NCBI RefSeq assembly: GCF_000020025.1
Contig: NC_010628.1
Coordinates: 7,800,001-7,832,000, forward strand
Reading direction: 5' to 3'
Length of the DNA: 32,000 nucleotides
Source of the DNA: Nostoc punctiforme PCC 73102
GTDB taxonomy: Bacteria; Cyanobacteriota; Cyanobacteriia; Cyanobacteriales; Nostocaceae
Of this stretch, positions 1 through 30,776 are shown piece by piece; position 1 is the stretch's first letter; each line of letters starts with the position of its first letter. Both the position numbers and the translations under genes were made by a program. The notes under the pieces were generated by a model. It searched no databases. It saw only the letters and a program-made list of their open reading frames with translations, and was not told the origin of the DNA.

Positions 1-1
1 G

Positions 2-505
2 GCTACACGCTTGCGCGAACGAGGTTACAGTGAAGCGGCATTTGAAATTTTGCAAGCTGGAGATCATTCAGATTTTCAGCGATCTGTTAGGGCAGATTAC
101 TTTCGTGATTTAATTCCGGTTTATACTTTTGCCACACTTCATGCTATTCAAGCAGAAGAGCGCTTACAATCTGGTTTCTGCATTTATTTTTTAGTATCGG
201 ATGGAAAAGTTAGCAATATTAACTGGACTGAACGCGCTCGTCAGCATTTGATTAATCCTGATTCAGACTCTCGTATTCATCCTTGCTTACTAGCTGTACT
301 ACGGGGCTTGCATTTTATTGAAGCTGAACGAGGTGTGTACAAAAGTCAACTTAGCCCAGTACTAGATCCATTTAGTTGGATATCGCCTAATACAGTTGAG
401 GAGGCTGGTGAAGTGAAAGTTCTCCACTCCCGCCGCAAAGGACAGGTATTACTTAATTATCGCGCTGTACTCACCTACGTTTCTCAAGTTCTGCACAGGA
501 AGTAA
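2..505 (+). CDS. Hypothetical protein, probably 5'-truncated by the window edge; first member of a coupled pair with the giant helicase-like ORF
   Basis: The frame is open from nt 2, with no stop before the listed TTG at 11. The stop TAA (503-505) overlaps the ATG (505-507) of the next ORF. I recognised no family motif. Confidence 0.5.
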   Translation, partial: ATRLRERGYSEAAFEILQAGDHSDFQRSVRADYFRDLIPVYTFATLHAIQAEERLQSGFCIYFLVSDGKVSNINWTERARQHLINPDSDSRIHPCLLAVLRGLHFIEAERGVYKSQLSPVLDPFSWISPNTVEEAGEVKVLHSRRKGQVLLNYRAVLTYVSQVLHRK

Positions 506-3500
506 TGGAATCATCCTTTCTACAACAAGCCTCTATTTGGGGGCAGATATTTGAAATTGCTGTTAAACGCGGTGTTTTACAACAGTTGATTCACAGAAAC
601 TTACTGTTGAACGATCATCCTGTTTTCCAGCTTTGGCAATCTCACAAAAATGCAGATGTCTCCCACCAACTGGTGAAAGCATTCAAAATAACAGATCCCA
701 ATCACAAAGAATGGGTAGAAACAATGCTGCGTCATCTGCTGGTACTTGGCTATGGTTTAGGTTGGACAACAATGCGTGAATGTCTCCACCACAGTCAAAT
801 TAAACAACCTAAACTAGAAGCAATTTGGTGTCCATTGACATTGCCAGGGCAGCAAATGCAACGAGATGAAGAAAAAGAAGAGACAGCAAAAGCATTTCAA
901 GAAACTTTCAATATACCAGGGAAACCAGATGAGAACTTAGTCAACCGAGGACAACCAGCCAGAGCCGATTTTATTTTATGGCTGTCCAACGAATTTAGTT
1001 CCCACAGAAACACAGATAAAGATGAAGTAATACCCTCTAAAGACTTTAAAAATGTCTTCTCCCAGCCAAATGATCTAAAGCACAAAAAAATTGAGAATTT
1101 AATTCTCTGTTTGGAATTTTCGTATAACGCACCCATCAAATTTGCAGATTTTAAAAATGAAGCTCCTCACACAGAAGAAATAAGTCGTTATGCACGTTAC
1201 ATGGAATCACGGGGGGTCTTCTCTAGAGTTTGTGCAGAGGTTGAGGGTGAAGAATTTTCTCTCTCTAAAAGGCTGGAAAGTTTTCTGTCAGCATTTAGCG
1301 GTCAAGATAAACCATTATTCAAGCTCTGTCAGTCATCATCTTATACTGAGCGCCTGATTCATGTGTTACGCAAGTGTAAACGCTTAGAAGGAAGTTGTCA
1401 TGCTAGAGCGATCGCTGTCACATCCAATGGTATTGAAAGTCTTGCTGCTCAATTCTGGGGTGTGGAATCTGAACCAGATACTAGAGCCAAGTTAATGAAA
1501 TCTTTGGGGCAAGCATATTGCAAGGCTAAACATTCAGATGATGATGTGCCGCTCGATCTAGATGCAGAAATTCTTTTGGTGTTCAAGAAGCTCTTAGGAG
1601 GACTACCGTCTGCTTTTAAAGAACAAGCAAAGTCTCTAGCTGAAAAACCGCCTTTAGGTCAATACTCCCACTTTCTCTTTCATGAAAATGTGACGGACTT
1701 TTACAACCCAATGGGTGAAATTAGCAAGGATGAGGCGATCGCATCTATTGAAGACCACAACGCATTACATGAGTTTTTTGGTAGCGACCCAGTTACACAA
1801 ATTGCTAATTTTGTCAATCAAATCAATCCTAACAAGGAAACAATTCCTCTGCGACAAGTACACGAAGCAGCAGTTTTTGTCGGTCTGAGTGCTGCTCAAG
1901 TCGGTAAAATTAACGTCCTAGCTTTGGAAGGAAATCCGGGTATTGGTAAAACTACTGCTGTGATTAAATTTCTTAAACAGCAGTCTCAAGGCTTCTTATT
2001 TTTTTATCTCAGTCCGCGAGTTGTAATTAATCGAGATGTTACTGACAAACTTGCTAGAGAAAACGAGCAACCCACAGGGATATTAACTATCACCAGTAAT
2101 AGAAATTTGATTGATGCAGTTCCCGAATGGTATAAAAAACAGGTTCAGCAAAACAATTTTCCACCCTATAGTATCGATAGTGCTGTTGTTGTTGATGGTA
2201 TTGAAAAACTCATACGTCCTCTTGGCAGTATCTTCTTCCTAACGCCAGAACAAGAACTTGATATTGATTGCAATATAGTCGGCTCGACTCGCTTTAAACG
2301 CCGTCTTAACGAAAGAGATTACAGCATAGAATCTCTTTACAGCCCTGGTGTATTGGGTACGATCGCAAAGTCAGCCCGCAAATTGCTAGAAGCCAACCCG
2401 CAGGTTAATCAGCTAGTAATGACTGCTGCTATTCAAGGTTATCGGACACTCAACGATCAATCAACCACAGTTAATGCCTTCAATAACTTATTTGCAAAAA
2501 AAGCCGATACTAAAGCTGGAAAGAATGAACGTTCAGCATTTGCAGCGCGGATTCCCACTATAGTTGTCATGGTAGATGAACTCGCTGGTGATGGTGCAGG
2601 AGCGCCCTTTGTCCGTAAGGTAGCAGAATGGTTGGAACAGCAATTTATTAAACCTTTTGATACAAATCGATCTCCGTTTAAAATTGTGCTAATTCTGGCT
2701 GATGCCTCACTCAGCAATGAAGTTGTATTGGATAGCTTTTTGAACTCAGGCGATCGCGCTCCTGATAAAGTACTAATAAGTCAGAGTCGAGGTGAAGCAG
2801 CGTTTCGGGTAACAGGCACTCATACAAAAATTGGCCCCAAAAAACACCCAACACTACACGTCATGACAAATAGCTACCCCGCCAGTAAACTCACTATTGA
2901 CTACAGTATTAGACTCTCTCCCATTAAACCAGGCCAAAACAGTGACGGTAGAGAGCAGACAATTAGACAAGCAATTCGAGAAAAATCAGAAGAAGAGTCA
3001 CTGACAAATGCCTACTTAGAAATTAAGGATGGTTTACACAAGGGAGTAGAGCAGTTAATTTTCTTTGCTCAGGATAAAGCTTTTCTACGTCAGTTACAGG
3101 AAAAATTGACCACTGGTAAAGAAGCTCTCCTAAAAAGGGGAGAGGTGGAGGTTTTGGATCAAAGTGTATCACCCGATCAGCGATTGAAATTAGTAAAGCC
3201 GCCACGACGAGATGAAGTTAGGGTTTTCCTCATGACTTCTTCAGGTGCAAGAGGTGTTTCTTTCCCAAAAACAGATTGCATTATTGCTGCAATCCCCCGA
3301 TTTAATATTGAAGCCGCTTTAATGGAAATAGCGCAATTAATTTACCGTGGTAGAGGAATGTATACAAATCCAGAAACCGGAATGGAGGTTTCTGGAGATA
3401 ACAAAGATAGACGGTTAGTTATGCTAATCAATGATTTCATCATTGAAAGAGAGGACATTGATGCCAAAAGACTATGGTTGCGTCAGTCCAGCGATTTATT

Positions 3501-4461
3501 GACTTTGCTGGTAATGCTGCGCTCTACAATTCATACTCGCATTAAAGGTGATGCAGGACTTAATAAAAATAGAATTGCATTTGTCCCAGTTGGCTCTGTT
3601 GGAGATGAAGAATTATTGCGTTTGATGTCTGATGATTTATTAGATTTATTGCGTGAAGCCAAAATTTTTATCAGCGATAGTCACCCTCAAGAAGCAAAAG
3701 CAATTGTGAAAAAAGCCGAGCAGTTAACTGCAAACATCTTTAAGCATTTTGACTTGAGAGGTCAATCATTAGAGAAAAATGCCAAATCTTATGCAAATTA
3801 TCAAACTTTACAAGCTTTGGTTAAAGCTGTTTCTAGAATTCAGAGTTCTTTATTGCCATCTTTAGATAGTGATGCGCTAGAGATACCTGATAGTCTAACT
3901 TGTATAGGCCCTTTCTGGATAGAAGATTGGAGTGATCGCCAAACTGAAGAAATATTTAGCTTTGAAGCATGGAAAGCTGATATTAAACAAAATAGCAGTC
4001 GTCTTTTAGGACTATTAAAAGAAATTGCCGAAAGCAAGAAGTTCAAATTTCCCTCAAAACTCAAACGCCCTGCCAACGAACTATATAAGTTATTGAGTCG
4101 GGAACAAGAAGGATTTGTTATTGAATCTTCCACACGTCAAGCATTGAAAACTAAAAATATAGTTGTAGGTTTACCCCTCGACTATCCCCATTTCTGGAAT
4201 GAGCAATCAGAAGATGATACCCGCCAACAAGTATTAGAAGATCCCCAAGCTTGGAGAAGTGCGCTAGGACGTTCTCTAACTCCTCAAGGCTTAATCATAC
4301 CTGTAGTACCTCACTATCGAACATTTCCTTGGGTAGCTGTGGCAGGTAGGCGGATTTTTACACAATTAGAAACAGTTTTTAGCGATCGCTACTTTATGGC
4401 ATCCAGTGAATTAAATCTTCTTAATACAATATTGCTTGAAGATGAAGCAGATAACAAATAG
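505..4461 (+). CDS. Large SF2 helicase-like P-loop NTPase (1318 aa) with unassigned N-terminal (about 450 aa) and C-terminal (about 360 aa) regions
   Basis: Motifs are in canonical order. Motif I / Walker A is GNPGIGKTT (nt 1930-1956). Motif Ia-like is FFYLSPRVV. Motif II is VVMVDELAG with D691-E692 (nt 2575-2580). Motif III-like is LILADASLS. Motif V-like is LMTSSGARGVSFP (nt 3232-3267). Motif VI-like is QLIYRGRG (nt 3334-3357). It is a single uninterrupted 3.96-kb ORF. Confidence 0.8.
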   Translation: MESSFLQQASIWGQIFEIAVKRGVLQQLIHRNLLLNDHPVFQLWQSHKNADVSHQLVKAFKITDPNHKEWVETMLRHLLVLGYGLGWTTMRECLHHSQIKQPKLEAIWCPLTLPGQQMQRDEEKEETAKAFQETFNIPGKPDENLVNRGQPARADFILWLSNEFSSHRNTDKDEVIPSKDFKNVFSQPNDLKHKKIENLILCLEFSYNAPIKFADFKNEAPHTEEISRYARYMESRGVFSRVCAEVEGEEFSLSKRLESFLSAFSGQDKPLFKLCQSSSYTERLIHVLRKCKRLEGSCHARAIAVTSNGIESLAAQFWGVESEPDTRAKLMKSLGQAYCKAKHSDDDVPLDLDAEILLVFKKLLGGLPSAFKEQAKSLAEKPPLGQYSHFLFHENVTDFYNPMGEISKDEAIASIEDHNALHEFFGSDPVTQIANFVNQINPNKETIPLRQVHEAAVFVGLSAAQVGKINVLALEGNPGIGKTTAVIKFLKQQSQGFLFFYLSPRVVINRDVTDKLARENEQPTGILTITSNRNLIDAVPEWYKKQVQQNNFPPYSIDSAVVVDGIEKLIRPLGSIFFLTPEQELDIDCNIVGSTRFKRRLNERDYSIESLYSPGVLGTIAKSARKLLEANPQVNQLVMTAAIQGYRTLNDQSTTVNAFNNLFAKKADTKAGKNERSAFAARIPTIVVMVDELAGDGAGAPFVRKVAEWLEQQFIKPFDTNRSPFKIVLILADASLSNEVVLDSFLNSGDRAPDKVLISQSRGEAAFRVTGTHTKIGPKKHPTLHVMTNSYPASKLTIDYSIRLSPIKPGQNSDGREQTIRQAIREKSEEESLTNAYLEIKDGLHKGVEQLIFFAQDKAFLRQLQEKLTTGKEALLKRGEVEVLDQSVSPDQRLKLVKPPRRDEVRVFLMTSSGARGVSFPKTDCIIAAIPRFNIEAALMEIAQLIYRGRGMYTNPETGMEVSGDNKDRRLVMLINDFIIEREDIDAKRLWLRQSSDLLTLLVMLRSTIHTRIKGDAGLNKNRIAFVPVGSVGDEELLRLMSDDLLDLLREAKIFISDSHPQEAKAIVKKAEQLTANIFKHFDLRGQSLEKNAKSYANYQTLQALVKAVSRIQSSLLPSLDSDALEIPDSLTCIGPFWIEDWSDRQTEEIFSFEAWKADIKQNSSRLLGLLKEIAESKKFKFPSKLKRPANELYKLLSREQEGFVIESSTRQALKTKNIVVGLPLDYPHFWNEQSEDDTRQQVLEDPQAWRSALGRSLTPQGLIIPVVPHYRTFPWVAVAGRRIFTQLETVFSDRYFMASSELNLLNTILLEDEADNK

Positions 4462-4865
4462 TTAATGTACGCTTAGGAATTACTTAGCGCAAAGTCAAAT
4501 TTTCAACCAAACTATAAGAGTAAAACACATATATACTATACTATGCAATCCTTTATTTGGAATAGAAGAAGCATAGGTATCTCGCCCGTCTTTTAACGGG
4601 CAAGATTCCCAAGCCATAAGCTGTCTCAAAACAGTATTGAATGGATATCGTAAATAATTGCTAGTTTTGAGTCGGGCGATTACACCAGAAATACAGTTAA
4701 CTTGATTAAAGATGGTTGAAAATTGTAAAACAATCAACCATCCATAGATCCAATCAATCCAAGTCAAAATCAAAGATAAATTCGGAATTACCTTGAAGTT
4801 TTGAGATTGACAAATTACCGATACATTAAAAGCTTTATAGCAGTTTCAACAACTACGGTTGACAG

Positions 4866-5132
4866 TTATCCAAAATTACAAAAATCATCTACGCGGATAT
4901 CCCGCCAAATATCAGAAATTTGCCAGCCGGAATTGCCAACAGATTGGACTATGGGATTATCGCGCAATGGAATGTAGTCGGGTTCTCTCGGCTCTGGAAT
5001 CGCTACTGGTTGCTCATCAACTACAGGGGGTGAAAAATTGACGGTATCAGCTTGAAGATTTTGGTCTTCAGCCTCTTGGATTTCCATCATTTTCTTCAGG
5101 GTCAGCGTGTCAGATTTTTTGATGATCTTCAT
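4866..5132 (-). CDS. Small hypothetical protein (88 aa, acidic and Pro-rich middle)
   Basis: ATG-initiated ORF in an otherwise low-coding gap. It competes with an overlapping + strand ORF (4859-5041). No recognisable motif. Confidence 0.3.
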   Translation of the reverse strand: MKIIKKSDTLTLKKMMEIQEAEDQNLQADTVNFSPPVVDEQPVAIPEPREPDYIPLRDNPIVQSVGNSGWQISDIWRDIRVDDFCNFG

Positions 5133-5469
5133 ATCTATTAATTAAAAGTTTTCATTCACTGAATATCAAAGTCATTAGCTGAAAAGTCAGATGACAACAG
5201 AGTTGTAAAAAGTCGTGGGTGAAATGAGTGTTAATAATTGCACGGAATAAACAAGATACACTAAATCTCTGGAAAATACGAGTCCCCTGCTGAGGAATTT
5301 CTTAATCGAGTGCAAATCTCTATTTTGGTACAGATGCCTTAGCATAATTTTGCACAAATGCTTTGAGCAATTTACACTACTGCTTTAGAGTAAGTCCAAG
5401 GCCGTTTTGTGTTTTAGACTCAATCAAGCCTGATAATAGAGGGTTAAGAGTTCTCGCTGTAAAGGAGCA

Positions 5470-24660: not shown

Positions 24661-27600
24661 ATGATTTTTGGCAGTCTATACCCTGACATTCCTATCCCTA
24701 AACAGCCACTGACAGAATTTGTCTTGCAACGAGCAATAAATTTAGCCGACAAACCAGCCCTTATTGAAGGACTAACTAACAGGATAATAACATATAAACA
24801 ACTAGTCGAGTCAATTCGTAAAATTGCTTGTAGCTTGGCAGCGCGTGGCTTCTCCAAGGGAGATGTTTTAGCTATTTACAGCCCTAATATTCCGGAATAT
24901 GCGATCGCTTTTCATGCCGTAGCAACTTTAGGTGGGATTATCACCACAGTCAACCCATCCTACACCGCAGAAGAACTGGCATATCAACTCAATGATGCTG
25001 GAGCAAAACATCTCATCACCATCCCAGACCTTGTAGGGCAAGCATTAGAAGCGATTGGTCACTCAAAAGTAGAGGAAGTATTCGTATTTGGTGAAGCAGC
25101 TGGAGCTACCCGATTTTCTGTACTTTTAGAAGGTGAAGGAGAAATACCAAAAGTACAAATCAATCCACAAGAAGATTTAGTAGCCTTGCTCTACTCTAGT
25201 GGTACTACTGGTATGCCTAAAGGTGTAATGCACACCCACCATTCATTTGTGGCCAACTTTCACCAATTCCAAAACTGCGAGCCAGTCAGCAAGGCTGATG
25301 CAATTATCGGAGTTTTACCTTTTTTTCACGCCTATGGCCTGGTCATGCTGAATTACAGCCTGGCTTGCGGTGCTACTGTTGTGACGATGCCGCGCTTTGA
25401 TTTAGAAGCCTTTGTGAGCCTGATTGAAAAGCATAAAATCACCCGTATTCACATCGTTCCGCCAATTTTGCTGGCATTAGCAAAGCAGCCAATAGTAGAT
25501 AAATACGATCTTTCGAGCTTGCGAGTGCTGACTTCTGGAGCAGCACCACTTAGCCATCAATTGATCGAAGAGTGCGAACAGCGTCTGACTAATTGCGTTG
25601 TTAAGCAAGCATACGGAACGACAGAAACCTTTGTGACCACCTACACTCCAGATGAACGTGACAAAATCAAGCCTGGTTCAGTAGGTCAATGTCTCCCTCA
25701 TGTTGAATGTCAAATCGTAAATGTCGATACCCAACAACCATTAGGTTTTAATCAATCAGGAGAGTTGTGGGTACGCGGGCCGCAGATCATGAAAGGCTAT
25801 TTGAATAATCCCGACGCAACTGCCAGCACAATCAATCGAGATGGTTGGTATCACACTGGTGATATTGTCTATATTGACGAAGACGACTACTTTTACATAG
25901 TCGATCGCATCAAAGAATTGATTAAGTGTAATGGCTACTCCATAGCACCGGCAGAATTAGAAGCAGTATTGTTGAGTCATCCGGCTGTCGCTGATGCTTG
26001 TGTAGTCAAGAGTCCTCATCCTAGTAGTGGGGAAGTTCCCAAAGCTTTTGTCGTACTAAAAGCCGCTGCCACTGCACAGGAAATTATGGAGTTTGTCGCT
26101 GGTCAAGTTGCACCGCATAAAATGATCCGCAGACTTGAATTTGTGGACAAAATTCCCAAATCGCCTTCTGGCAAAATTTTGCGCCGCATATTGGCACAAC
26201 AAGAACTGACAAATATCAAAGCAGCATCCTCTGACGAGCAACCATTGGAGCAACGATTAGAATTTTTAGAACAGTTAGATGATGGTTCTTTGGGTCAACG
26301 TCAAGAACTATTAATTGCTTACATTCGAGAGCAATTTGTCAAAGTTTTAGGCATCAATACTTCTCAAAATCTGGATATAGAGAAGCCTTTGCATGAACTG
26401 AGGCTTGATTCTCTCATGAATATCGATTTGAAGAATCGTATTGATACTGAATTAGGGGTAGACATACCCATAGATATGTTGCTTGGTAACTCCAATATCA
26501 ACCAATTGGTAAATTTATTGCTTCAGCAACTAACAGCGAAAAACACAATTATCTCAAAAAAATCATCGGCTGAATTAGCAACAGATTTGAATTCAGAAGT
26601 TGTTTTAGACTCTACTATATTTCCTGAATACCCATCTGAGTCATTTGTAACTGAGCCTGCTGCTATTCTCTTAACTGGAGCTACAGGCTTTTTAGGAGCT
26701 TTTTTACTTCAAGAACTGCTGTTAAAAACCCAGGCGGATGTTTATTGTTTGGTACGTTCTACTGATGCTAGATCAGGGAAGATGAGGATTCAAAATAACT
26801 TAGAATCCTATGGAATTTGGCATGAAGATTTTGCTGAGAGAATTATTCCTATTTTAGGTGATTTATCTCAACTAATGTTAGGTTTGTCATTACAAGATTT
26901 TCAAAAAATGAGCAGCATCATTGATACGATCTATCACAACGCTGCTTGGATTAACTATGTTTATCCCTATTCAGCATTAAAGCCTACCAATATTTTAGGA
27001 ACTCAGGAAATATTGAGATTGGCGAGTCGTGTAAAAATCAAGCCTGTACATTATATTTCCACTATTGCTGTTTTTGAGTCACCTGCTTATTGGGGAAAGG
27101 TAGTAACTGAATCCGATCAACTCGATCATAGTGAGGGAATGAAACTTGCTTACTCCCAAAGTAAATGGGTGGCAGAAAAGTTAGTGATGTTAGCGAGTGA
27201 CAGAGGAATTCCAGTTTCAATTTATAGATCACCATTTATTTCTGGGCATAGTCAAACAGGCGCTTGGTATAAAGATGATGTGATTTGCCGCACCATCAAA
27301 GGCTGTATACAAATTGGGAGCATGACAGACATCACTGACACCTTAGATTTAGCCCCTGTGGATTACCTCAGCCAAAGTATTGTGTATTTATCACAGCAAA
27401 AAGATTCTCTTGGCAAGGCTTTTCACTTAAATAATCCTCAATCTATTTCTTGGCGAGAACTAACTGATTTTATCCGTTCTCTTGGCTATCAGATTGAGCA
27501 TATTGCTTATCACGATTGGCAAACACAACTAAATAATTCTGTCCGCTCTCAGGAAAATCCTTTGTATCATCTCTTGCCTTTTTATCAAAAGCATTATCAA

Positions 27601-27765
27601 CAATCAACCGATCCCAAAATTAGTTGTTTAGCAACACAAAATGCTCTTACAGTAAGTTCAATAAGGTGTCCTCCAGTGAATGAACAATTGCTCAATACCT
27701 ATTTTTCCTATTTTCTTCGTAGTGGTTGGTTGGGCGTGTCGCTACCCTCGAATAAATTGGCTTAA
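24661..27765 (+). CDS. NRPS-like carboxylate reductase: 4-coumarate-CoA-ligase-like adenylation domain, carrier domain and thioester reductase (A-T-R)
   Basis: The 4CL-like N-terminus is MIFGSLYPDIPIP. AMP-binding motifs are SSGTTGMPKG (nt 25195-25224), YGTTE, GWYHTGD and PKSPSGKILRR. The carrier Ser is in LRLDSLM (Ser584, nt 26410-26412). The reductase has LTGATGFLG (nt 26674-26697) and YSQSK. Confidence 0.9.
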   Translation: MIFGSLYPDIPIPKQPLTEFVLQRAINLADKPALIEGLTNRIITYKQLVESIRKIACSLAARGFSKGDVLAIYSPNIPEYAIAFHAVATLGGIITTVNPSYTAEELAYQLNDAGAKHLITIPDLVGQALEAIGHSKVEEVFVFGEAAGATRFSVLLEGEGEIPKVQINPQEDLVALLYSSGTTGMPKGVMHTHHSFVANFHQFQNCEPVSKADAIIGVLPFFHAYGLVMLNYSLACGATVVTMPRFDLEAFVSLIEKHKITRIHIVPPILLALAKQPIVDKYDLSSLRVLTSGAAPLSHQLIEECEQRLTNCVVKQAYGTTETFVTTYTPDERDKIKPGSVGQCLPHVECQIVNVDTQQPLGFNQSGELWVRGPQIMKGYLNNPDATASTINRDGWYHTGDIVYIDEDDYFYIVDRIKELIKCNGYSIAPAELEAVLLSHPAVADACVVKSPHPSSGEVPKAFVVLKAAATAQEIMEFVAGQVAPHKMIRRLEFVDKIPKSPSGKILRRILAQQELTNIKAASSDEQPLEQRLEFLEQLDDGSLGQRQELLIAYIREQFVKVLGINTSQNLDIEKPLHELRLDSLMNIDLKNRIDTELGVDIPIDMLLGNSNINQLVNLLLQQLTAKNTIISKKSSAELATDLNSEVVLDSTIFPEYPSESFVTEPAAILLTGATGFLGAFLLQELLLKTQADVYCLVRSTDARSGKMRIQNNLESYGIWHEDFAERIIPILGDLSQLMLGLSLQDFQKMSSIIDTIYHNAAWINYVYPYSALKPTNILGTQEILRLASRVKIKPVHYISTIAVFESPAYWGKVVTESDQLDHSEGMKLAYSQSKWVAEKLVMLASDRGIPVSIYRSPFISGHSQTGAWYKDDVICRTIKGCIQIGSMTDITDTLDLAPVDYLSQSIVYLSQQKDSLGKAFHLNNPQSISWRELTDFIRSLGYQIEHIAYHDWQTQLNNSVRSQENPLYHLLPFYQKHYQQSTDPKISCLATQNALTVSSIRCPPVNEQLLNTYFSYFLRSGWLGVSLPSNKLA

Positions 27766-27849
27766 CTGTTACCAATTAAGCAATTTTAATAGGATTAAAA
27801 ATTACGCTCAAATAAGCCCATTTTTAATTAGTATTTAGGACTAAAACTC

Positions 27850-28332
27850 ATGTCTGACATTAAAAAACTGGGTTCATCATGGATCATAAATTGGTTTTTT
27901 GGTTTTAACCAGATTCCTACAAACGAAGATAGCAGCATTTATATGAAATCTGTTTTAACTTGTGCTAAAGCAGATGGAGTTATCTCACCAGAAGAAAAGG
28001 ATTGGGCACTTGGATTCTGTGCATCTTGGGGAGTAGCAGACTGGGTGATCGAAGATCTAAAAACTTATGAAGCTGATGAAGCTCTAGAAGAAGTAATTGC
28101 TCGCTCTCCTCAAGTATCTATGGCACAAAGAGATATACTTCTGTCTGCAATTTGGGTTTCTGCTGCCGATGGAGAACTTCATGAAAAGGAAAAAGCAAAA
28201 ATTCGGAAAATGGCTACTATTTTAGGGATAAAAGAAGAAATAGTAGACCAGTTGGAGCAGCTACAACAAGAAGAAGCAGCACTACGACAGAAACGCCTTA
28301 ACCTCTTATATCCTCAGAAAAGCCCCTATTAA
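27850..28332 (+). CDS. TerB-like (tellurite-resistance TerB fold) small protein, paralog 1
   Basis: Two TerB-style repeats, CAKADGVISPEEKDW and VSAADGELHEKEKAKI. It is a paralog of 31209-31703. Confidence 0.65.
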   Translation: MSDIKKLGSSWIINWFFGFNQIPTNEDSSIYMKSVLTCAKADGVISPEEKDWALGFCASWGVADWVIEDLKTYEADEALEEVIARSPQVSMAQRDILLSAIWVSAADGELHEKEKAKIRKMATILGIKEEIVDQLEQLQQEEAALRQKRLNLLYPQKSPY

Positions 28333-28443
28333 TTAATCATCTGGCGTTGCTGATTGCAATATGAATATTGGTGTAGAGATGCTTCACAGAAGATTTGAAT
28401 ACCTGAATTCAGCAATGCCATTTTCTCTTGATTGAGAATTTTT

Positions 28444-29487
28444 ATGTTTCAAACTCAATTACAACATCCTACAAGTAAAGACGAAATGCAGACTACACAA
28501 ACATTAAAACAAATTATCGCTGGTGCTTGGATTACGCAAGGTATTTATGTAGTTGCTCAACTTGGTATTGCAGATTTACTTAAGGATGGTTCTAAAAGTT
28601 ACGATGAATTAGCAACAAAAACTGGTGTAGATGCCCGATCCCTCTACCGACTACTACGCGCCCTTGCCAGTGTTGGTATATTTGCTGAAGGTAATTCAGG
28701 CTACTTTGAGTTAACACCCGTTGCCGAAAGTTTGCAAAGCGATCGCACCGATTCCCTACGTGGTTATGCTATCAAGTCTGGTCAAGCCTGGGAATGGCAA
28801 CCTTGGGGACATCTACTTGAAAGTATCAAAACCGGAAAACCTGTATTCAAAAATATTTTCGGGATGGAGAGATTTGATTACCTAGCCACAGACCCTTCTG
28901 CATCTAAAATATACACCCAAGCTATAAGTAGTATTTCTGGCGAACAAGATGCAGCGATCGCAGCTGGTTATGACTTCTCATTCATCCACAACTTAGTTGA
29001 GGTTGGAGGTGGAAATGGTACTTTGATAGCCTCGATTCTCAAATCGAATTTGACAATGCAGGGGATTTTATTTGATTTACCCCATGTAGTTGCAGATGCC
29101 AAACCTGTGATTGAAGACCTGGAACTACAAGATCGTTGTCAACTAGTCGGTGGGAACTTCTTTGAATCAGTACCCACAAGTGGAGATGCTTACTTGCTAC
29201 GGTATATTATTCACGATTGGGATGATGAAAGAGCGATCGCCATCCTGAAAAATTGCTACCAAGCGATGCAGCCTGACGGCAGATTGCTGCTAGTCGAAAT
29301 GGTTATACCTCAAGGCAACGAACCATTCTTTGGCAAACTCCTCGACTTGCAGATGCTCGTGAATTATGGCGGCCGTGAACGGACTCAAGCTGAGTATCAA
29401 GTCCTATTAAAAACAGCAGGTTTCTCATTGACAAAAATTTATCCAGTAGCACCTCCAATCAGCATAATTGAGGCTATTCGCCTATGA
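28444..29487 (+). CDS. Class I SAM-dependent O-methyltransferase (COMT/Methyltransf_2 type with an N-terminal dimerisation domain)
   Basis: A winged-helix dimerisation region (GIADLL...LYRLLRALASVGIF), SAM motif LVEVGGGNG, DLPHVV, and a C-terminal GRERTQAEY. ATG 28444 is preferred over the listed TTG 28432. Confidence 0.85.
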   Translation: MFQTQLQHPTSKDEMQTTQTLKQIIAGAWITQGIYVVAQLGIADLLKDGSKSYDELATKTGVDARSLYRLLRALASVGIFAEGNSGYFELTPVAESLQSDRTDSLRGYAIKSGQAWEWQPWGHLLESIKTGKPVFKNIFGMERFDYLATDPSASKIYTQAISSISGEQDAAIAAGYDFSFIHNLVEVGGGNGTLIASILKSNLTMQGILFDLPHVVADAKPVIEDLELQDRCQLVGGNFFESVPTSGDAYLLRYIIHDWDDERAIAILKNCYQAMQPDGRLLLVEMVIPQGNEPFFGKLLDLQMLVNYGGRERTQAEYQVLLKTAGFSLTKIYPVAPPISIIEAIRL

Positions 29488-29600
29488 AACGGAACAGGGA
29501 ACGGGCAACAGACAACAGGAAAACAAGTCTCCGTTCCCGCCACCAAGAGGCTTGGTAAATCATTTTTTGACACAACACTCATAGTTTTAAGGTAAATACC

Positions 29601-30776
29601 ATGAAGCAAAATTTGATTGAAACTTTACTAGACATTTCAGAACAGGAAAAAGAGCGGCTTTTAGCAGCCATCCAAATTGATGCTATTACTGAAAGTCCAT
29701 ATCTAGAAAAGGAATCAACAGAATCACAAGAGTACAGACAATTTTTCCAATCACTCTTCCAAGAGATACTTCATTTTGAAGATAACGAGCAGCAATTACT
29801 TTTTGAAATAGCAAGATATGTGCGTCATAAGTATTTGGAAAATAAAGGAAATTTAAGAGGTGTGATTGAGATTACTAATGCTTGCGAAAGGAGTTGTAAT
29901 TATTGTCCAATGAGAATTGAAAATGAAGAATTAGGAGATCGTTACAATTTTTCTAGCGAAAAAATATTAGAAACCGCCATAGAAATCAAAGAAGCAAAAA
30001 TTCCCATTGTATTCATTCAAGCAGGTGAAATTAAAGCAACGACTAAAACCGTATCTAGAGCCATACCTAAAATTAGACAACTTTTTGAGAATAACGTCAT
30101 AATCCTTCTAAATCTTGGTGATAAACCTAAAGAAGATTACACAATACTCAAAGAAGCTGGCGCAAATCAATACATTATTAAATTTGAAACGAGCAATTGG
30201 AATTTACACAAACAAGCTAGAGGATACCTCTTATCCGATCGCCTCAATAGAATCGATGATCTATTAAGTTTAGGATATGAGGTGGGAAGCGGAACAATTG
30301 TCGGTTTAAAAGCAGTAAATGCCAATGGGAAAATCGAAATTGAACAAACTCCAAAGATGCTGGCGAACGATCTCCTACTTGCCATGAGGAAAAAAGTTCA
30401 TATGTGTAGTGCGTCTCCTTTTGTACCTGGTAAAGGTACTCCACTAGCTCAAATGAGTGCGGGCAACGCTAGTATGACTTTAAATTGGATGGCTTTAGCC
30501 AGAATTATGATGCCAAAAGTTATGATACCTAGTGTAAGTGCTCTTAATGTTTTATTAGGACAAGATGGTCAGTTAAAAGGACTGCAAGCAGGGGCAAATA
30601 CGATCACCGTGAATTTTACCCCTCCCAACTATCAAGACCAGTATGCTATTTACAGTAAACAAAAACGGTACAAAGTCAAATACGAATATGCTTTAGATAT
30701 TATGGAAAAAGCAGGTATCGAGCCAATTTTATTGCCTAACATGCCTAGCCGGAGTTTTTTACTCTCTCAAAATTAG
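29601..30776 (+). CDS. HydE/PylB-like radical SAM enzyme with a ~60-aa N-terminal extension
   Basis: CERSCNYC (CX3CX2C, nt 29883-29906). From memory it is collinear with Thermotoga HydE blocks: IEITNAC..C.YC, IQAGE, EAGANQYIIKFETSN, LGYEVGSGTIVGL, SPFVPGKGTPLA, ALARIMMP and GANTITVNFTP. Confidence 0.8.
   Translation: MKQNLIETLLDISEQEKERLLAAIQIDAITESPYLEKESTESQEYRQFFQSLFQEILHFEDNEQQLLFEIARYVRHKYLENKGNLRGVIEITNACERSCNYCPMRIENEELGDRYNFSSEKILETAIEIKEAKIPIVFIQAGEIKATTKTVSRAIPKIRQLFENNVIILLNLGDKPKEDYTILKEAGANQYIIKFETSNWNLHKQARGYLLSDRLNRIDDLLSLGYEVGSGTIVGLKAVNANGKIEIEQTPKMLANDLLLAMRKKVHMCSASPFVPGKGTPLAQMSAGNASMTLNWMALARIMMPKVMIPSVSALNVLLGQDGQLKGLQAGANTITVNFTPPNYQDQYAIYSKQKRYKVKYEYALDIMEKAGIEPILLPNMPSRSFLLSQN

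Follow-up and report, generated by a model that had tools for sequence, protein, structure and literature searches.

The stretch of DNA that we have analysed, referred to throughout as the window, comprises 32,000 nucleotides (nt) of Nostoc punctiforme PCC 73102 (contig NC_010628.1, positions 7,800,001 to 7,832,000, forward strand). It opens with two genes on the plus strand, the second of which encodes a superfamily 2 (SF2) helicase of 1318 amino acids (aa) and the first a partner protein whose predicted structure is Argonaute-like. The two genes form a translationally coupled unit, conserved across distant bacteria, that probably serves in nucleic-acid-guided interference against invading DNA.

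Organization of the Locus

From nt 2 onwards the upstream frame runs without interruption to a TAA stop codon, and within the sequence AGTAATGG at positions 501-508 this codon overlaps the ATG of the helicase gene (Table 1), confirming the TAATG junction pointed out in the initial annotation of the window. The same annotation had supposed that the first reading frame continues beyond the window edge, as indeed it does: on public contigs of identical sequence (L001-L003) the complete gene can be read, encoding 1061 aa and preceded by a divergently oriented DUF6429 gene and purH. The partner, which had been assumed to be small, is thus a large protein with an Argonaute-like predicted fold. Window codons at nt 2-502 account for its last 167 residues (895-1061), corresponding to the last stretch of the predicted PIWI-like domain and including the invariant residues C954 (nt 179-181), H998 (nt 311-313) and D1016 (nt 365-367). 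The translation of the second frame is 100% identical to WP_012412531/ACC84592, annotated as "helicase-related protein".

The low-coding gap of about 1 kb that had been described 3' of the operon is also real. Short open reading frames (ORFs) only are found in it, an Rfam scan of positions 4462-5469 returned no match, and promoter and terminator pattern scans of the same interval gave no excess. One of the short ORFs, on the minus strand at 4866-5132, is conserved; it measures 88 aa in the ORF list and 74 aa as called on the public contigs, and it has no family match.

Table 1. Coordinates of the two-gene cassette and of the spacer that follows it, in window positions
Feature	Position (nt)	Strand	Basis
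Argonaute-like partner gene, 3' end	1..505	+	open frame to window edge; stop at 503-505
TAATG stop/start overlap of partner and helicase genes (translational coupling)	503..507	+	read in sequence
Helicase gene, 1318 aa (N. punctiforme WP_012412531 / ACC84592)	505..4461	+	ORF re-translated
Helicase N-terminal domain, aa 1-450, without recognised family	505..1854	+	invariant columns
SF2 ATPase core of helicase	1924..3360	+	motifs and Pfam Helicase_C
Motif I, LEGNPGIGKTT	1924-1956	+	
Motif Ia, YLSPRVVIN	2005-2031	+	
Motif II, MVDELAGDGAGA	2569-2604	+	
Motif III, LADASLSN	2695-2718	+	
Motif V, LMTSSGARGVS	3229-3261	+	
Motif VI, IAQLIYRGRGM	3328-3360	+	
Helicase C-terminal region, aa ~1031-1318, ending in conserved tail ELNLLNTILLED	3595..4458	+	invariant columns
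Low-coding spacer 3' of the operon	4462..5469	.	ORF list, Rfam, pattern scans

The Two Genes as a Unit

In order to establish how tightly the two genes are linked we have examined 80 loci from species-representative genomes, retrieved with the helicase. A full-length partner gene lies directly upstream on the same strand in 59 of these, with a median gap between the aligned genes of 14 nt in the 59 intact loci and with a TAATG or TGATG overlap as the commonest junction in related loci. Of the remainder, 6 to 8 are cut by contig ends and about ten are decayed: internal deletions have joined what is left of the two genes, 1.1 kb has been inserted, the frame has shifted or the 5' end is truncated. 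Decayed copies occur in Nostoc and relatives (L024, L040, L048, L066, L035, L019, L020, L054 and L085); the 1.1-kb insertion, in one of them, falls at helicase residue ~748 and is accompanied by a duplicated 3' fragment.

The sequence identities of partner and helicase to the Nostoc pair are correlated with r = 0.99 over 62 loci. Even the one genome in which the genes are unlinked has retained both, separated by ~330 kb on a 1.2-Mb Leptolyngbyaceae contig (L075:9989-13711; L091:8001-11003), bearing out the expectation that the two co-occur; there the proteins are shorter than usual, 1240 aa for the helicase and 1000 aa for the partner. Pairs in the same order are carried by a Cupriavidus megaplasmid, an Acetobacter plasmid and two Acinetobacter plasmids.

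A second, distant sub-family consists of a ~1005-aa protein followed by a ~1210-aa helicase, the genes often overlapping, and comprises 330 clusters that are common in cyanobacteria. Profile-profile alignment (hhalign) of this sub-family with that of N. punctiforme gave a probability of 98.9% for the partners, aligned along 937 columns, and of 100% for the helicases, aligned along 1157, and by these alignments both proteins are homologous to the N. punctiforme pair along their whole lengths. The second sub-family is found on chromosomes and on conjugative plasmids, for example plasmid C of Trichormus variabilis ATCC 29413 (L093:4369-11075, AVA_RS29110/29105), where the pair precedes genes for a Sacsin-domain protein and for a hypothetical protein of very large size; further loci are L097 and L098, and Capilliphycus salinus carries both sub-families. 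A recurrent third gene was sought among the neighbours and none was found, the neighbours varying by locus. The pair is a translationally coupled, co-occurring and co-diverging unit. The view of it as an uncharacterised coupled module holds up as well, Helicase_C being the sole model that either protein matches in PADLOC-DB 2.0, NCBIfam or Pfam.

Predicted Structure of the Partner

Searches of Pfam, NCBIfam and PADLOC with the partner gave no match, nor did searches of PDB sequences, including those made with a 64-sequence profile and with a superfamily profile. An AlphaFold2 model was built from the 64-sequence alignment, the first sequence of which (P0121) is the gene product minus its first 48 residues; the residue numbers that we give are those of the full-length protein (P0121 numbering + 48). 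The model has a mean predicted local distance difference test (pLDDT) score of 83.8, with values of at least 70 for 885 of its 1013 residues, and a predicted template modelling score (pTM) of 0.83.

When this model was compared with the PDB using Foldseek the best 36 matches were all Argonaute/PIWI proteins, with probabilities of 0.75-1.00 that are at least 0.84 in all but one case. The best match is Rhodobacter RsAgo (E 4.5e-8), and others include Arabidopsis Ago10, silkworm SIWI, human Ago1 and Ago2 and the yeast Ago C-lobe. The Argonaute alignments span ~470-570 columns and include the MID domain; Archaeoglobus AfPiwi, for example, aligns over ~470 columns with a template modelling (TM) score of 0.42-0.45, normalised to the target. 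The C-terminal ~450 aa of the partner are thus predicted, from the model, to form a MID-PIWI lobe, and the ~600-aa N-terminal half is without assigned domains.

A candidate MID motif, Y700-x3-Q704...Q719...K738, is invariant or nearly invariant in the partner family and appears as R-x3-K...Q...K and Y-x3-Y...Q...R in two distant sub-families, giving (Y/R)x3(Q/K/Y)...Q...(K/R) across all three. In the model these residues sit on successive helix, strand and helix elements, an order that agrees with that of Argonaute MID domains. The motif resembles both the Y-x3-K...Q...K motif of the guide 5'-end pocket in ApsB and the long-B prokaryotic Argonautes (pAgos) (PMC11096173) and the MID pocket of DdmE, Y363/Q376/K405 (10.1101/2024.05.10.593530), and may itself be a pocket for the 5' end of a guide. 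The PIWI part shows no evident canonical DEDX tetrad; in it the end of beta4 has His (Lys in the plasmid sub-family) at the position at which Asp is expected and the end of beta1 is a variable N/D-E/D; the invariant residues of this part are E832/E833, D891, H998 and D1016.

Two partner homologues bear the label "CHAT domain-containing protein". We have discarded this assignment, there being no CHAT match in the members scanned with Pfam, a scan that included P0176, with P0135 and P0002 lying outside it.

The Helicase

The SF2 motifs that the initial annotation had recognised in the 1318-aa protein are present in the correct order: motif I, GNPGIGKT (residues 476-483); Ia, SPRVVIN (503-509); II, DELA (691-694); III, DAS (733-735); V, TSSGARG (911-917); and VI, QLIYRGRG (944-951). 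None of them varies among 62 aligned homologues, whose identities go down to 45%, and the earlier numbering of K482, D691 and E692 is correct. The long insertions that had been described correspond to ~180 aa between motifs Ia and II and to a beta-rich segment separating motif III from the second RecA-like domain. Pfam recognises Helicase_C at aa 845-936 (E 5e-6), together with weak P-loop matches, and found Helicase_C in 37 of the 37 helicase homologues scanned; aa 1-450 and 960-1318 are without recognised family in these scans, in agreement with the initial annotation. No match to the N. punctiforme helicase was obtained in NCBIfam or PADLOC-DB 2.0, and PDB sequence searches (phmmer and hmmsearch, with single sequences and family profiles) produced marginal matches to DEAD-box RecA2 domains only.

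The AlphaFold2 model of the helicase covers residues 1-1200 of 1318 with a pLDDT of 83.4. Foldseek returned 398 helicase matches at E <= 1e-3, and the nearest solved folds are those of MLE/DHX9, Brr2, HrpA, MrfA and Lhr, that is, of DExH/Ski2-type and related enzymes. With a Walker A motif, DExx and motifs III, V and VI in order the protein belongs to the SF2 helicases, and by its predicted fold it is of the DExH/Ski2/Lhr-like type.

In the whole-chain fold search the helicase core dominates the result, and a comparison of the model with viral structures likewise gave helicases only and nothing informative on the N-terminal domain. The alignments do reveal a polar signature in this domain, comprising D155 (nt 967-969), E204-x-S206 (nt 1114-1122) and D268-K269..K273..Q276...S279-Y280 (nt 1306-1344), which is kept as D, E/D-x-S and (D/E)K..K..Q...SY in three distant sub-families, those of Trichormus, Acinetobacter and Acetobacter, there being four sub-families in all. 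In the model, helix 65-95 is followed by strands 102-108, 156-162 and 198-206 and then by helix 219-234, a succession compatible with a PD-(D/E)xK core, D155 beginning one strand and E204 lying within the next, and on the strength of these conserved positions the domain may contain a PD-(D/E)xK-like nuclease site. Two more specific proposals for the N-terminal region were considered and rejected. Kinship with the lambda-exonuclease-like YqaJ received no signal when the helicase profile was compared by hhalign with YqaJ from L005, and a metal cluster formed by C109, C202, C243 and C275 is unlikely because the distant sub-families do not keep these four Cys, which are conserved in the main family. 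In the C-terminal region the invariant columns are E1051, E1140, W1142, P1224, W1250, Y1296, E1302, N1304 and N1307. The label "L-rhamnose mutarotase" that a Joint Genome Institute (JGI) entry attaches to one helicase homologue is a misleading annotation.

Distribution and Genomic Context

Of 185,579 species genomes 159 contain a relative of the helicase, among them many cyanobacteria as well as Methylococcales, Chromatium, Burkholderiales, Chloroflexota and Acidobacteria, and the partner family has 336 matches at E <= 0.001 among 1.84 billion representative proteins. Defence genes are neighbours in all three of the proteobacterial chromosomal loci that we inspected and on both Acinetobacter plasmids. 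In Methylomonas these comprise PglZ and BrxL of the bacteriophage exclusion (BREX) system and a HEPN protein, along with SbcCD-like, AAA_13 and prophage recombination genes; in a member of the Rhodocyclaceae, an Eco57I-type methyltransferase, a T5orf172 protein and a DUF4011-type helicase with AAA_11/AAA_12 plus MTES_1575; and in Methylosoma, an integrase, ParA/KfrA, HsdR and a trio of TerB, BrxC_BrxD and DEAD genes. The neighbours on the Acinetobacter plasmids are HNH nucleases, a WYL regulator, a DUF4011 helicase and HigB. On the plasmid of Acinetobacter piscicola (L092:13002-15008) an HNH gene, PtuB-like according to PADLOC, begins 29 nt past the helicase and is followed by the WYL regulator, the DUF4011 helicase and HigB occupying that position on the other plasmid.

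Downstream of the pair the flank differs between Nostoc species and even between strains in which the pair is 100% identical, one such strain diverging ~908 nt past the helicase stop, at about window nt 5369. There (L002:8110-13161) a 453-aa gene, a BrxC_BrxD ATPase and a split DEAD/Cas3-like helicase replace the response-regulator and glutathione S-transferase (GST) genes of the window; the Methylosoma trio, located 3' of the pair (L089:13996-20286), is related. These BrxC_BrxD/DEAD genes look like a separate three-gene candidate defence cassette, and they mark the site as a variable hotspot. The Argonaute-like/helicase pair, for its part, looks like an accessory, horizontally mobile and frequently lost cassette that in Nostoc has for some while been resident at the edge of a variable region.

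Elsewhere in the window, and unrelated to the cassette, are a cytochrome P450 gene (11844-13415, minus strand) and a small cluster resembling secondary metabolism (24661-30776, plus strand), which encodes a 1034-aa nonribosomal peptide synthetase (NRPS)-like protein of adenylation, peptidyl carrier protein (PCP) and reductase domains, an O-methyltransferase and a radical S-adenosylmethionine (SAM) enzyme.

Proposed Function and Alternatives

Translational coupling, co-occurrence, co-divergence, intact ATPase motifs, an Argonaute-like fold and an accessory, mobile distribution are what our computations establish, and they are best accounted for, in our estimation with a probability of roughly 0.6, if the pair is a self-contained two-gene Argonaute-like plus helicase cassette that uses nucleic-acid guides to interfere with invading DNA, plasmids and phages for instance. 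A mechanism can be drawn by analogy with DdmDE, ApsAB and the type I CRISPR (clustered regularly interspaced short palindromic repeats) Cascade-Cas3 system. The Argonaute-like protein would hold a short guide in its MID pocket and recognise complementary foreign DNA; once bound to its target it would recruit or activate the translationally coupled helicase, which would load on the displaced strand and translocate at the expense of ATP, and the DNA would be degraded or nicked via the helicase N-terminal domain or by host nucleases. We infer from the same analogy the binding of a guide, the chemistry of guide and target, the nuclease activity, the direction of translocation and the defence phenotype.

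Several observations weigh against this reading. The Foldseek TM-scores of the partner are modest, 0.2 when normalised to the query, and neither Pfam nor the PDB sequence profiles provide a sequence-level link to any Argonaute: there is no Piwi (PF02171) match at E <= 1 in 43 partner homologues or at E <= 0.1 in 8 divergent ones. It is from alignment and secondary structure that the pocket and active-site residues have been assigned. As to the helicase, assignment of its N-terminus as a nuclease receives no support from Pfam, PDB sequences or hhalign, and a Ser stands where (D/E)xK normally has Lys. With regard to context, most of the cyanobacterial loci inspected are without defence neighbours, the cassette lying among housekeeping genes that include smpB, fumC, pheT, purS/purQ and znuA; the upstream flank of purH and DUF6429 is common to Nostoc; the GC content is native, with no anomaly; and no specific neighbour recurs, the context having been read from individually inspected loci. 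It is because of the syntenic purH flank and of these housekeeping neighbours that a defence role is something we infer rather than assert.

Three alternatives deserve consideration, which we rank as a NurA/Endonuclease V-like nuclease, then a housekeeping complex and finally a modelling artefact. The first, which we regard as unlikely, holds that the partner is a guide-independent RNase H-fold nuclease of the NurA/Endonuclease V type that, together with the helicase, processes DNA ends or damaged DNA in the manner of HerA-NurA, either in defence, acting on free phage ends, or in repair. Helicases that work together with an RNase H-fold nuclease are familiar, HerA-NurA being the example. NurA (E 0.014) and Endonuclease V (E ~0.05), which are other PIWI-like RNase H folds, rank directly below the Argonautes in the Foldseek list, and the invariant E832/E833, D891, H998 and D1016 of the PIWI-like domain, as well as the partner's lack of sequence similarity to Argonautes, would be in keeping with such an enzyme. 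The Argonaute matches, however, are better by 5-6 orders of magnitude and their alignments cover the MID domain, which is absent from NurA and Endonuclease V; moreover, a MID-pocket-like motif is conserved across the sub-families, and NurA works with hexameric HerA/FtsK ATPases and not with SF2 helicases. We favour guided interference by an Argonaute-like protein and its helicase over a guide-independent nuclease.

Less probable still is that the pair constitutes a housekeeping complex of filamentous cyanobacteria, occasionally spread horizontally and serving genome maintenance or the surveillance of R-loops (RNA-DNA hybrids) in place of immunity. Such a role would be consistent with the chromosomal position beside purH in Nostoc and the conserved upstream synteny, with the housekeeping neighbours and native GC content described above, and with the presence of the repair helicases Lhr and MrfA among the nearest bacterial helicase folds. 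Against such a role, the pair is found in few species, 159 genomes in all, scattered over several phyla, and it is repeatedly deleted or interrupted within Nostoc. Its copies lie on plasmids and beside BREX, restriction-modification, HEPN, HNH and WYL genes and an integrase, its downstream flank varies even between strains with identical genes, and two paralogous sub-families can coexist in one genome. The initial annotation had named core synteny next to housekeeping genes as an outcome that would speak against a defence module, and this is partly what we find, in the form of purH upstream in Nostoc, although the downstream flank is variable and the distribution patchy. The defence proposal itself gains from that patchy distribution, from the plasmid-borne copies and from the proteobacterial defence neighbours, and it loses from the cyanobacterial loci, mostly set among housekeeping genes; on the whole distribution and neighbours would seem to fit accessory defence better than a core function.

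That the Argonaute likeness is an artefact of the predicted model, the partner being an unrelated scaffold or regulator of a stand-alone helicase, we consider very improbable, given a confident model (885 of 1013 residues at pLDDT >= 70, from 64 aligned sequences), 36 consecutive top matches from bacteria, archaea, plants, insects and mammals that all belong to one superfamily with probabilities of 0.75-1.00, next matches of the same RNase H-like fold class and a conserved motif at the position expected of the MID pocket.

Returning to an Argonaute-like protein acting with a helicase, a more detailed proposal can be put forward, tentatively and at somewhat less than even odds. The partner would be an unrecognised deep branch of the Argonaute/PIWI proteins, as remote as pPIWI-RE or Med13 and comprising at least two sub-families and several hundred clusters, mostly cyanobacterial, that is obligately paired with a DExH helicase bearing a nuclease-like N-terminal domain. 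The origin of this programmable helicase-nuclease would be separate from those of DdmDE, ApsAB and pPIWI-RE, and a non-canonical active site made up of E832/E833, D891, H998 and D1016 may persist in the PIWI domain of the partner.

Argonaute-type proteins that hand their target to a helicase-nuclease, as in DdmDE and ApsAB, are a recently discovered route of plasmid elimination in bacteria and are candidate programmable DNA tools. The cassette would add a family to this group, one that sequence searches of Pfam, NCBIfam and PADLOC do not reveal, yet whose conservation reaches from cyanobacteria as far as methanotrophs and the plasmids of Acinetobacter. If so, the obstacles to conjugating or transforming Nostoc and Anabaena model strains could have a cause here, and the range of sequences known to adopt the PIWI fold would grow. 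More generally, structure-based re-annotation of pairs listed as "hypothetical protein + helicase" can expose immune systems that profile databases have missed.

Comparison with Known Systems

The initial annotation had set the pair beside Hachiman, Druantia, DISARM and Mokosh and found that it matches none of them. It is correct that no named system is matched, and profile searches of Pfam, NCBIfam and PADLOC-DB did not place the pair in a known repair family or a named defence system; the proper comparison set, however, is DdmDE, ApsAB and pPIWI-RE, because the partner has an Argonaute-like predicted fold. Neither protein from Nostoc, Methylomonas or Acinetobacter has a match in PADLOC-DB 2.0.0, the sole match to that database being a weak one to mad8 in the P-loop region of the Trichormus helicase (E 1e-4). 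Literature searches by topic and by accession number gave no description of this pair. Three systems that combine an Argonaute-type protein with a helicase are already known, namely DdmDE, ApsAB and the predicted pPIWI-RE triad. The present pair belongs to none of these, nor by sequence to the classical pAgos; the MID-PIWI fold of the latter is found in the partner, on the predicted model only.

DdmDE of Vibrio cholerae is similar in that it consists of two genes, for an Argonaute-type protein without canonical DEDX, which is not evident in our partner either, and for a large SF2 helicase effector, and in its proposed logic of guide-directed recognition followed by helicase recruitment. DdmE is a long-C pAgo, and DdmD has an N-terminal helicase and a C-terminal PD-(D/E)xK nuclease (10.1101/2024.05.10.593530). 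The differences are considerable. There is no sequence similarity, and the gene order is reversed, with the Argonaute-like gene coming first here; DdmE is not among the 50 listed Foldseek matches of the partner, nor DdmD among the top 50 of the helicase. At 1061 aa the partner is far larger, and DdmD translocates 5'-3' whereas our helicase is nearest to 3'-5' DExH/Lhr folds. In addition, Walker A starts at residue 476 here and the sole nuclease-like signature is N-terminal, no conserved D...(D/E)xK signature being present in the C-terminal region of the 62-homologue alignment.

ApsAB of E. coli ST38, which has antiplasmid activity and whose family reaches cyanobacteria, comprises ApsA, with a Walker A motif near its N-terminus and a C-terminal nuclease, and ApsB, a protein of ~700-790 aa that is encoded downstream and reported to be without an RNase H/PIWI fold (PMC11096173). 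As in our pair, an Argonaute-like protein that only its structure and a MID-like Y-x3-K...Q...K motif reveal is combined with a helicase of ~1300-1450 aa, but both gene order and domain order are the opposite here. Comparison by hhalign with the first 399 aa of cyanobacterial ApsA-like and ApsB-like proteins gave probabilities of 0.5% and 0.1%, respectively, and the accessions of the pair's proteins are absent from the ApsAB family tables (PMC11096173). Both kinds of locus, the ApsAB-like one and the cassette, are present separately in Nostoc sp. LPT, Nostoc sp. B(2019) and Lyngbya aestuarii.

The pPIWI-RE systems described by Burroughs et al. in 2013 have an operon of restriction endonuclease (REase), DinG helicase and PIWI genes, for which guide-dependent restriction has been predicted, and the pPIWI_RE family overlaps DUF3893/DUF3962 (PMC3702460). 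In common with the present pair they have a deeply divergent bacterial PIWI protein of ~1000 aa with an unrelated N-terminal region, an operonic association with an SF2 helicase and a restriction-endonuclease-fold domain, the latter a candidate only in our pair, and a patchy distribution that includes cyanobacteria. They differ in having three genes with PIWI last, as opposed to two with the PIWI-like gene first, and no pPIWI_RE Pfam match was found in 51 partner members. Our helicase, moreover, is without a DEAD_2 or Helicase_C_2 Pfam match and is nearest to DExH/Ski2 folds, and the four tested Cys of its N-terminal domain are not conserved across sub-families, so that there are no DinG features.

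Two further comparisons are instructive. The long-B pAgos are catalytically inactive and depend on co-encoded effectors, and one of them, RsAgo, is the single best structural match of the partner; the partner, however, has no detectable sequence homology to them and is ~300 aa longer, and the effector here is a helicase and not a stand-alone nuclease. In type I CRISPR systems a guide-bearing module, Cascade, recruits Cas3, a helicase fused to an N-terminal nuclease domain. The likeness is one of analogy only, our cassette being without CRISPR array, cas genes or HD domain and its recognition module being a single Argonaute-like protein.

Taken together, the cassette appears to be an undescribed combination of a new sequence family with a new architecture of the known theme of an Argonaute-like protein plus a helicase or helicase-nuclease. 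The concept itself is no longer new; what is new is a database-invisible family of the PIWI fold that has an obligate helicase partner and is found widely in cyanobacteria and also on plasmids.

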